Positions 26,517 through 49,655 of a stretch of 64,000 bases of DNA are shown piece by piece; position 1 is the first letter of the stretch; every line of letters begins with the position of its first letter. Location: the NCBI GenBank assembly GCA_964016885.1, contig OZ024745.1:82832001-82896000 (forward strand), read 5' to 3'. The position numbers and the translations under genes are program-made. The DNA is from Eledone cirrhosa (Eukaryota). Under the pieces are notes generated by a model. That model was not told where the DNA came from. It made no database searches and saw nothing but the letters and a program-made list of their open reading frames with translations.

Positions 26517-26637
26517 TCTCACATGCTCCGAAGAACTGACTGGTTATAATTTTGTATTGGCGATCGAGTAACGTGAAAACAAGCGAACAGCGATCTCTAG
26601 ACCTACCAGTTCAGAGAAACAATTGTCAGCAATGAGA
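26517..26637 (+). ncRNA. Non-canonical type I hammerhead (CCGAAGA core); inverted twin at 24168-24288
   Basis: tgct-CCGAAGA-a ctga ctggt...accag t tcag a-GAAA-caattg-TC-agca; helix I extends tctca/tgaga. Confidence 0.7.
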
Positions 26638-27539
26638 TTAAAAACCTTTCTTTGTATTGCAAACCATGTCAATCTTCTTTCCTGATTTATTATTACTCCA
26701 AGTGTTTACAACATAGGAATTACAGCATACTCGCAACATCACTACGAATACGCCTTGTTGAGTCAAACCAAGCCTAGCGTTGATATCATCCACTACCCGG
26801 AATACCATAACTGGACTACACCTAAGGGGACTGGATATAACTATTATTTGTTACCCCGTATATATATAATATATATATATATATATATAGTTTTAATATA
26901 GATGAGATTCTACAGGACTAGAACTGTTTCATTCTTTAGAAATCATCAATGGTTACCTCCGATTCAACCCGGAATAACGTACGTATATATATATATATAT
27001 ATATATATATATATATATTGTAGACAGTAACAGAACAATATTCAGGTTTGTATCTGGGATGCACGGAAGGTCCACTGGTAGTGAGAGACCTCGGATCCTC
27101 GTTGGGATATCTCTCTATAGAAGGAAACTCTGGTGTAAAACCTGCAGTTCAAGATGATGTTGTTAAGTTCATCTATTCGGATTATAGCTATTGTTGCTCA
27201 GAGAGTGTGATTGGTCCGATGCAAGGCCTTTTCTCAGTATAAGAAATCACTCGATATCACAGGAATCACTCGATATCATAGGATCTATGAATGACATAAA
27301 TGGCTGACCGTAATCATATCCGTTCGCAGTACCGAAAAGACTGAAGCTGATGTCATTTTATAGTCATACTTGATCATGAGATGGCTGCCACCATATATGT
27401 ATGCATACATATATGTATGTATGCATATATGTATGTATATATGTATGTATGCATATATGTATGTATATATATGTATGCATACATGTATGTATATATGTAT
27501 GTATGCATACATGTATGTATATATGTATGTATATATGTA

Positions 27540-27995
27540 TGTCAAAGGGCAAAGGAGCTCTTAAGAGTCAATGGCCATCCAAAATCACTGGGAGACCCCT
27601 TAGCCTTTGTCAAGGCAGAATTCTAGGAGAAGGAAAACTCTGATATAACACCTGCAACCCTGATGGTATCCAATGATGTTGACTTGTGTTTCTTTTTGGT
27701 AAAAATCATCTTGCTTAAGAGAGTGGGACTGGCTTTGTGCAGTGCCTTTGCTCACTATAAAAGCTTCACGGCACAGGCATTGCTTTATATCTGGAGATCT
27801 CTCTGCACTTGTCGTCACATGGCACCATGTGCCCAGCACTATGTGTCAATAATTGTTACAGGTATAGTGTTTGTACCAGAGTTTTCAAGTCGCTGGCTGG
27901 ACTAAAAAGTCACAGTCGTTCAGTGCATCGGTAGGGGTTCTCCCACATGGATATAAAGTAGTGGCCTTACTCGAAAACGAGTTGGCAGCCACCAT
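27540..27995 (+). mobile_element. RTE-clade LINE 5' region fragment
   Basis: Inverted homologue of 6660-7130; embedded in (TATG)n. Confidence 0.6.
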
Positions 27996-28269
27996 ATATG
28001 TATGTATGCATACATGTATGTATATATGTATGCATGCATAGATGTTGTTCTTCTGGCTTTATCATTATATTACATTTTCGACGATAGAAAGGTTTCTAAC
28101 ATTGACTGAAGACTCATTCATTGGCATTTAGACAATATCACCTAGGTAAATATGTATATATGTTTGTGTTTGTGTGCAGGTATGGTTGCTATTGTATATG
28201 AGGATCCGAATGGTTTGAGTCATATGTAATTTTACTTGTTTCTCTATCTATGTGTGTATATACCGTTAT

Positions 28270-47640: not shown

Positions 47641-47969
47641 TCATATACATACATCCATACACATAACACGTAACACATACATATATATATATATATACAT
47701 ATATATATATACATACATACACACACACACATACATATATATATTTATATATATATATATACACACATACGCTTACACACATATAAAAACAATAAAATAA
47801 ATATACAATACATCCATAAACATTCACGTAACATATAGATATACATACACACACACACACACACACACACACACACACACACACACACACACACACACAC
47901 ACACACACACACACACATATATATATATATATATATATATATATATATATATATATATATATATATATA

Positions 47970-48700
47970 ACGGCTATGAATTAGTTTTGCGAGGTTTTTG
48001 ATATGAAATCGTGTGTCGAAATAAATATTGTTATACTTGAGGAGGGTCATATTTGTGTAATATTGCCAGAATTAATAACAGAACACACTCACTGTTAGGT
48101 TAGTTTTCGCTTAGAAGGCCAAGGCTAAACAGAATAAATGAATGGAATAACAACACCCAAACAAACAACACTGATTTAAGAGAAGTATAAATAAATAAAT
48201 AAATAAATAGATAAATAAATAAATACATACACAAGCACAATAACAACAAACACATATAAACACACACTAGTAAACTAAGATAGAATACATTAACCAATAC
48301 ACAGTCACCCAAACACGAACACACATCAAACAAAACACTATACACACACGCAAACGCATGCGCAAAGAAGACAAAAAATAAACAAATAAATAAATATATA
48401 AACAGACTAAATAAAAATGGCGTAGACATACAATGCAACGGGAGGAAACAATAGCACCAGTGACGCTGTTGCAGATGTGCAACGAAAGAACTTTGATAGA
48501 CTATATATATGTGTTTGTGTCTATATTGTATCTGTATTTTTGACCGTTGGTCAGTCAATGGCAATATTGAGGACCGAATAAATTAAATTAACCGATATAA
48601 AAGACACAGAAGCGAAAAGCGAAAACCAACCAAACAGTGAGTGTGTTCTGGTATTAATTCTGGCTATATAACACAAAAATGACTCCCCAAGTATAACAAT
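47970..48700 (+). mobile_element. Neptune-like PLE 3' end with short inverted 5' arm
   Basis: 48108-48700 homologous to 54724-55280; 48025-48108 is the inverse of its terminus; decayed hammerhead at about 48455-48500. Confidence 0.75.
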
Positions 48701-48869
48701 ATATATATATATATTTATATACATACACACACACACACACACACACACACATATATATATATATATATATATATATATATATATATATATATATATATAT
48801 ATATACGCATACACACACACGCCTACGCATATACACACATATAAAAACAATAAAATAAATATACAATAT

Positions 48870-49655
48870 ATTAAAATATGCATATAACGTCACATACAGC
48901 TACATAAAAGAGAGGAGAAAGGAGAAGGTATGTGTATGCGTGTATTATAGTACATATGGGGAGTATAAGATGCACACTTAGGTCTGTGTACGGAACAAAT
49001 AATGTGTTCCAAAATGGAACACGTGGAGAGTATGTATTCACGATTGAAAAGGTACACATGTATGGGGGCGCGTAGCCCGGTCATATTGGGGTTTGTCACT
49101 ATGGTTGAGGTGTGTTGGCCTATAGGTGCAAGGTACCTGACTGAGCGACCGTGGAATCCGGGTCAACCTGTCTCGGCTCAGGCGATGTTCCTGCCTACGG
49201 TGACGTGCAGAGTCGGGTATGCATCTTGGGTTATTTTGGTTTACCACACGGGGCATATAATGACATCAGAGTATGGTGTCTGATCCCTTGAACCCGTTTC
49301 GTCGCTCTGATCGGCGGGTGCTCCGCCGCATGACCTTAGCCTGGGCTTCTCGGAGGATTCCATGCGGATAGTGTGCACCTTCACTGGTGTCTGCAGGTCA
49401 TGATAATTTCTGATTTCGCGTTGACCGCGTCATCCATCAGTCTGACAAGCCAACAGGAGGACAAGCGAGGAAGATGTTTTTGAAGCTCCCCAGTGAGAAA
49501 ATTTGTTCCGAAATTATTGCAAGTGTCCGACGAACCTGCAGTTCTAGAATCAGACAGATCCATACAATGATCGTGTCTCGAGCTGTCTGCCGGCGAAACA
49601 ATTGTAACACAATAAATTGAGTCCAGATGCATCACTGATTTTTCGTTTTATATTA
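48870..49655. mobile_element. Naiad-type PLE fold-back (minus arm with GIY-YIG end; plus arm with hammerhead)
   Basis: Minus strand ..DAVNAKSEIIMTCRHQ at 49381-49445; plus arm 49446-49655. Confidence 0.7.
49514..49615 (+). ncRNA. Non-canonical type I hammerhead (CCGACGA core)
   Basis: gtgt-CCGACGA-a cc t gcag...ctgc c gg c-GAAA-caattg-TA-acac; helix I extends ttatt/aataa. Confidence 0.7.

Follow-up and report, generated by a model that had tools for sequence, protein, structure and literature searches.

The 64-kb window of DNA analysed here (contig OZ024745.1 of the Eledone cirrhosa assembly GCA_964016885.1, forward-strand positions 82,832,001 to 82,896,000) holds copies of several families of Penelope-like elements (PLEs) accompanied by hammerhead ribozyme motifs with an unusual core: position 4, which is U in the canonical CUGANGA sequence, is C (C4) in the families that we label A, B, C and, elsewhere in the genome, S, and A (A4) in the one that we label W. 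From the sequences and their predicted folds we consider it rather probable that these are type I hammerheads lying in the terminal repeats of Hydra-clade PLEs, which still self-cleave, likely slowly and mostly as dimers, to release the unit-length RNA of the element. What is new is the occurrence of C4 and A4 cores at the level of whole families, a compensatory change in a palindrome, a covarying long helix II and an intact young element with C4 cores.

The five CCGANGA cores reported in the earlier note were all found again by direct inspection and pattern search. The family A motif (26524..26631, plus strand; recognized by inspection, search and folding) is made of a helix I 5' strand (26524-26527), the core CCGAAGA (26528-26534), an 81-nt helix II domain (26535-26615), GAAA (26616-26619), the palindrome ACAATTGT (26619-26626), a predicted cut after C26627 and the helix I 3' strand (26628-26631). 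Its inverted twin (24174..24281, minus strand; core CCGAAGA at 24277-24271, 81-nt insert) is separated from the endonuclease end, which lies upstream, by about 885 nt. Family B is represented on the plus strand at 49523..49610 (core CCGACGA at 49527-49533, 61-nt helix II domain, GAAA at 49595-49598 followed by the palindrome, predicted cut after A49606) and on the minus strand by a twin at 42201..42288 (core CCGACGA at 42284-42278, 61-nt insert), which sits within a 1.14-kb family-B 3' segment (42115-43258). The family C motif (43926..44044, plus strand; core CCGATGA at 43929-43935, 94-nt helix II domain, AAAA at 44030, then the palindrome) has its predicted cut after A44041, and an endonuclease ends about 410 nt upstream of the motif.

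In all five motifs the insert is followed by GAAA (AAAA at 44030), CAATTG and TH, and the five AAACAATTGTH words of the window are all preceded by CCGANGA, 61-94 nt upstream. The pattern with a 40-70-nt spacer matches twice in the window, a number reached by none of 100 shuffles. CAATTG is thus common to the five motifs, as previously described, but the true palindrome is the 8-mer ACAATTGT, which runs from A15.1 to U16.1. Similarly, the AAAA at 44030 (G12A) is present but reflects the decay of a single copy and not a family state, as exact GAAACAATTGTA occurs in 18 of 30 fetched family-C loci and AAAA in one of them. Families A and B form a helix I of 4 bp, family C one of 3 bp. Three helices surround the core with helix I open, which is the type I layout, and every core position fits a type I hammerhead except U4. 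The hammerhead family was absent among the 150 matches listed of the 152 Rfam matches obtained for the window at E<=1. At 26529 and in the palindrome, the contigs of three runs (of unknown kind, from one sample of one study and so not independent) presented no difference at a 10% threshold.

C4 lies within a CpG, and decay would therefore yield T4 or G5A. Samples were anchored on the flanks and were blind to the core (the first 100 rows listed for each family, counted by eye). Family A presented 89 C and 11 T at position 4, and 4 G5A, among 100 rows, with 10 of the 11 T falling within one subfamily of 20 rows. Comparable counts were obtained for family B (8 T4 and 2 G5A, n=95 after removal of 5 chance rows), family C (4 T, 1 A and 7 G5A, n=99 after removal of 1 row) and family S, whose helix II is short (2 T4 and 2 G5A, n=100), and script tallies on 30 fetched loci per family agreed with the C4 majority counted by eye. 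Because C is the majority letter in core-blind samples of all four families, C4 is the family state rather than decay, as had been suspected for A, B and C, whose consensuses are not CTGANGA; sister subfamilies carry U4. By inference, rescue through C-to-U editing was set aside: since copying proceeds through RNA, edited templates would leave T4 in young copies, and these are 98% C.

A relaxed descriptor allowing one core mismatch at a time was run on 416 loci (1.48 Mb) and returned 114 canonical motifs, 66 with C4 (a count inflated by the way the loci were chosen), 10 with A4 (a count free of this bias) and 16 scattered over other positions, against 2 in a block-shuffled control. Groups of at least three appeared only at position 4, with no G5 variants; among core positions, only this one shows recurrent variants at the level of families (U, C and A). 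The pair U2.1-A1.1 is found at the closing position of helix I in 187 of 190 C4 copies versus 53 of 108 U4 copies, a bias that may come from ancestry since the copies are not independent.

The A4 motif of family W was found by looking downstream of endonuclease ends and not by pattern, so that A4 itself was not sought. It lies at 60613..60663 (plus strand; core CAGAAGA at 60618-60624, predicted cut after T60658), with twins in the window whose cores are at 55887, 58390 and 23997, all on the minus strand, and it combines a 3-bp helix II set on a U-U pair, a non-palindromic helix III of 5 bp and a helix I of 5 bp. A4 is present in 30 of 34 family-W contexts, the other four being two with T at fold-back junctions and two truncated ones. 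W is an abundant Hydra-clade family with the motif at its 3' end, and its coding pieces form an inverted pair in the window (56825..59683), with a reverse transcriptase (RT; 57555-58368) and an endonuclease (56825-57643) on the minus strand and an endonuclease with a CxCx5C linker (58850-59683) on the plus strand.

At the scale of the 3.0-Gb genome, exact patterns were counted on both strands with the reversed pattern as control. The word GAAACAATTGTH occurs 56,824 times versus 1,363 for the reversed word, and CCGANGA...GAAACAATTGTH has about 10,000 matches versus 9 reversed controls, motifs that searches for CUGANGA would miss, as the earlier note foresaw. With a spacer of 55-85 nt there are 3,874 C4 matches (reversed control 5) and 4,292 U4 matches (control 8); with a spacer of 8-30 nt the numbers are 6,199 for C4 (control 4) and 8,019 for U4 (control 2), family C with its 94-nt insert lying outside both ranges. 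The motif is real and abundant, and C4 and the long helix II are independent of each other. The other combinations of U4 or C4 with a long or short helix II are as common and the centre of the palindrome varies, which is why C4, the long helix II and CAATTG do not make up the single class that had been proposed. A further C4 family was seen at L488-L490 (G000:C1:21339157-24429811), with a short G10.1-C11.1 helix II and a ACACGTGT palindrome; at L488, a Hydra-type endonuclease lies upstream of this motif.

The hosts had been taken for unrelated families of Naiad type, and neither part of this claim stood up. In families A, C, S and W, the RT is followed by a GIY-YIG endonuclease at the C-terminus, with RWK (RWR in family S), DKT, a CxCx5C linker, CxxC, CxH and (TA)n targets, which are the features of the Hydra clade as defined in the available parts of Craig et al. 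2021 (PMC8557442), the published Hydra proteins being compared by eye only. Naiads were rejected on the same grounds, as they have an N-terminal GIY-YIG, a CxC domain and DKA; the present elements share with them the (TA)n insertion bias and the inverted or tandem arrangements, but differ by RT first, DKT and RWK (PMC8557442, same parts). Protein identity among families A, C and S is 39-46% (46% between A and C). Together with W and four database proteins, these families make up a single clade apart from a short U4 family (98% by FastTree and by the Shimodaira-Hasegawa-like approximate likelihood ratio test; 31 rows, midpoint root), and the sole named database member of this clade is a protein from Argonauta hians. 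A tree of the endonuclease alone was poorly resolved. Family B yielded just its endonuclease end, with CxxC and CxH; an RT was obtained neither for it nor for the remaining long-helix groups, and Pfam named none of seven open reading frame (ORF) pieces above the cut-off. A retrozyme of the non-LTR (long terminal repeat) kind, consisting of non-coding tandem units of some 170-400 nt that each bear a hammerhead, does not fit: the motifs lie about 200-1,550 nt behind an endonuclease end, and repeats on the same strand are separated by 3-4.3 kb, although short tandem arrays were not specifically searched for. Beyond this genome, the first 120 metagenome stretches listed as pattern matches were taken as chance because none had a Hydra RT match, no relative was found among viral contigs, and other genome contigs gave one weak match.

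Within the window, family A is represented by a 5'-truncated copy (24095..25536, minus strand) comprising the GIY-YIG C-terminus (25145-25573), a 3' untranslated region and a terminal repeat ending at (TA)n, and by an inverted partner (25552..26866, plus strand) with the terminal repeat and a tail, with a gap in the match at 26186-26269. The family B body (48750..49447, minus strand) encodes a Hydra-type endonuclease C-terminus with a CxH motif, broken by a stop, and is inverted relative to the repeat at 49448-49658. Downstream of the family C motif lies a Hydra-clade ORF region (44352..47229, plus strand) with RWK, DKT and RT and then GIY-YIG, which contains stops and frameshifts and has no 3' motif. 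More complete elements were found elsewhere. Locus L381 is a near-intact family-A element with one premature stop; each terminal repeat contains the motif, and the two motifs are separated by 3.55 kb. Locus L478 (G000:C1:56974700-56984500) contains two full-length family-S elements arranged head to head and 99.93% identical, one of which has an open frame of 832 codons and 428-nt repeats that are 100% identical; all four motifs read CCGAAGA...ACAGCTGT, so that C4 is in both repeats, and the insertion is very recent. Two motifs flank the ORF in L381, L478, L390, L391 and L395, and such pairs of identical motifs enclose one ORF at a spacing of 3.55-4.17 kb.

Helix I has a mean of 3.7 bp versus 0.5 bp when slid (n=190 C4 copies). 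The predicted fold of the long helix II is an irregular rod. Covariation was counted on 16 natural representatives per group, helices I and III included, without correction for relatedness and on single-sequence folds of the same rows: pairing was present in 84% of the cells of the A-like group, with 49 double changes (shuffles 77% and 21), and in 88% of those of the B-like group, with 40 double changes (shuffles 80% and 17), slid controls giving 27-43%. Per-pair covariation measures were not above those of shuffles (62 and 38 of 500), and RNAalifold on MAFFT alignments returned 0 pairs (alignment A1) and 6 pairs (alignment A2). Regarding a tertiary contact of helix I with loop II, no consistent pairing was seen by eye in these two alignments between the conserved words of the long domain and helix I. 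The long helix II noted earlier is a conserved structure in the A-like and B-like groups, but one not tied to C4.

Helix III has 2-3 bp in a monomer and 8 bp in a dimer, and the 8-mer is predicted at +2.4 kcal/mol as a hairpin and at -6.4 kcal/mol as a duplex. In family S the palindrome has the centre AATT in 17, AGCT in 9, AGTT in 3 and another in 1 of 30 copies; the AGCT form pairs at -11.1 kcal/mol with itself and at -2.2 kcal/mol with the AATT families. Among 100 listed short motifs examined by eye, the centre was AT in 68, GC in 12, TA in 2, CG in 2, GT or TG in 9 and non-pairing in 7, so that it could pair in a dimer in 93 of them. This centre, unpaired in the monomer, changes in a compensatory way (AAUU to AGCU), which provides the best evidence for dimers. 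Together with motifs located in terminal repeats that flank the ORF and with a palindromic helix III (the exceptions being a ACAAATGT subfamily of family A and family W), the architecture points to the dimer dependence that the earlier note had thought probable.

The following scenario would account for these features. When a transcript extends across both repeats, its two palindromic words would pair; as A15.1 then pairs with U16.1 of the other copy, the geometry implies that each core would act on the cleavage site of the other copy and use its 3' helix I strand. The RNA set free by cuts after GUH would be of unit length and hold the ORF, with a 5'-OH plus a cyclic phosphate, and would likely serve as the template for retrotransposition. 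The helix II domain of 60-98 nt is a covarying peripheral rod acquired in some lineages and dispensable for C4, and family W, which possesses a true 5-bp helix III, would act as a monomer.

The motifs have much in common with the PLE hammerheads described so far. Those of the Hydra clade are of type I and lie on the sense strand, where the (TA)n-targeting element has its 3' end (Craig et al. 2021, PMC8557442, available parts), and share with the present motifs the extra N10.1/N11.1 pair under helix II, a short near-palindromic helix III and the same protein motifs. Of the 34 rows of File S2 of that paper, as far as available, 26 belong to Hydra elements, and all of these have ctga cores under a canonical descriptor; two plant rows have loops of about 30 nt. 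The differences from the Hydra rows (ctga; loop 2 of at most 10 nt) are the whole-family C or A at position 4 and the helix II domains reaching 98 nt. Minimal PLE hammerheads likewise combine terminal repeats, a short helix I, a palindromic helix III and predicted action as dimers; their activity is low, they cleave weakly and only as dimers, and a U3-A8 core variant is known (Cervera and de la Pena 2014, PMC4209133, available parts). In the same parts no position-4 variant is reported, helix II has 6-8 bp and G10.1-C11.1 is highly conserved, unlike here, where 10.1:11.1 is G-C in just 20 of 190 C4 copies. In the full-text literature covered, as far as its texts were available, U4C appeared only in PMC3088659, as a rare viroid variant, whereas here it is the majority state in several families and is joined by an A4 family; neither family-level C4 or A4 cores nor such a long helix II was found in animal PLEs; Lunse et al. 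2017 falls outside this coverage and may bear on the novelty.

A number of observations weigh against cleavage as we propose it. A U4C viroid variant was reported to be much slower in vitro and yet infectious (Ambros and Flores 1998, as cited in PMC3088659), and a full scan of another hammerhead gave low activity for single mutants of the CUGA turn (PMC9901934). Family B has A6U in 8 rows out of 59, which come from 7 dispersed loci (L213, L385, L508-L512), and 6 of the 8 share an upstream marker, yet a 204-column tree does not group them; these copies are possibly a lineage with a broken core that still spread. G8A is present at two family-S loci with a shared marker. In a young subfamily of family A, the word is ACAAATGT, which is not palindromic (homodimer -0.7 kcal/mol), and helix I has 3 bp. 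Folds of single sequences are weak (z from +1.5 to -2.5), and none of four short motifs folded, two of them from family W, has the full hammerhead as its lowest-energy fold. The covariation counts carry relatedness, use structures derived from the same sequences and exclude family C, and the choice of loci favoured the C4 count of the relaxed descriptor. Finally, Naiads, with their N-terminal GIY-YIG and DKA, proliferate without a canonical hammerhead (PMC8557442, same parts).

Several of these points would also be expected if the motifs were kept as a fold for RNA dimerisation or for recognition by the RT or endonuclease, catalysis being weak or dispensable and position 4 drifting, an explanation that we hold to be unlikely but serious. 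The low activity of U4C and other CUGA-turn changes, the A6U and G8A copies recurring at dispersed loci with shared markers, the three letters at position 4 and the spread of Naiads all suit it, as does the slowness of PLE hammerheads, for which other functions were not excluded in the available part of PMC4209133. However, drift does not readily explain why no family-level change was observed at C3, G5, A6, G8 or A9 among groups of at least three, nor why G5A, which CpG decay produces as easily as C4T, is dominant in no sampled family; moreover, the families have A, C or U at H17, which is what a cleavage site requires, with the reservation that the search patterns excluded G.

Another explanation is that C4 is a crippling change which hitchhiked in a few master elements, the motifs being dead relics whose conservation reflects recent amplification. 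Many copies are indeed young and near-identical, and few families dominate the counts, but C4 is common to families at 39-46% protein identity whose differing helices still pair, the compensatory change of the palindrome arose within a C4 family, and a separate A4 family keeps all three helices, so that we judge this explanation highly improbable. Finally, a single C4/CAATTG/long-helix-II class acting in unrelated Naiads through cross-family heterodimers, although the three window families share C4 and ACAATTGT and although A and S(AATT) would be compatible in helix III and, with 4 bp, in helix I in both directions, is hardly credible given Hydra-clade hosts, features uncoupled in the genome counts and a helix I of 1 bp for A-B and B-C either way and for an A core with a C site (3 bp for a C core with an A site).

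Other hammerhead-like motifs are present in the window. One has a canonical core, a helix II of 35 nt and an 8-nt palindrome of another sequence, ATGCGCAT; it occurs at 38672-38724 (plus strand) and 50236-50182 (minus strand), and L137 and L469 also carry it downstream of the ends of Hydra-type endonucleases. Further canonical-core motifs belong to other repeat families (34125-34155, plus; 33873-33843 and 22250-22225, minus; 36590, 33566 and 55040), some of them with 6-nt palindromes (ACTAGT, AGTACT). Apart from hammerheads, the window contains at 353-4777 a long 33-nt tandem array with stop-free minus-strand frames of 437 and 1,036 codons, probably a satellite, and fragments of non-Penelope reverse transcriptases at 7585-8151, 30375-31846, 35274-35855 and 50404-50871, recognized by eye from translations.

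A broader and more tentative reading, which we think doubtful, extends slow, mostly dimeric cleavage further: position 4 would have been freed (U, C or A) during a radiation of Hydra-clade elements, efficient natural hammerheads would exist beyond CUGANGA by the ten-thousand, the palindrome centre and helix I would form a self-recognition code choosing which RNAs dimerise and cut, and the long helix II would be a new peripheral domain replacing the usual loop-loop contact. Descriptor searches demand U4, which is treated as fixed, and hammerhead counts would consequently be low by about 10,000 motifs in this genome; some verdicts of "no hammerhead" on Penelope-like elements may likewise be artefacts of the descriptor. 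Together, the sister families varying in position 4, helix II length and palindrome centre and the intact young element would constitute a natural panel for asking whether PLE hammerheads must cut, and must do so as dimers, for retrotransposition.

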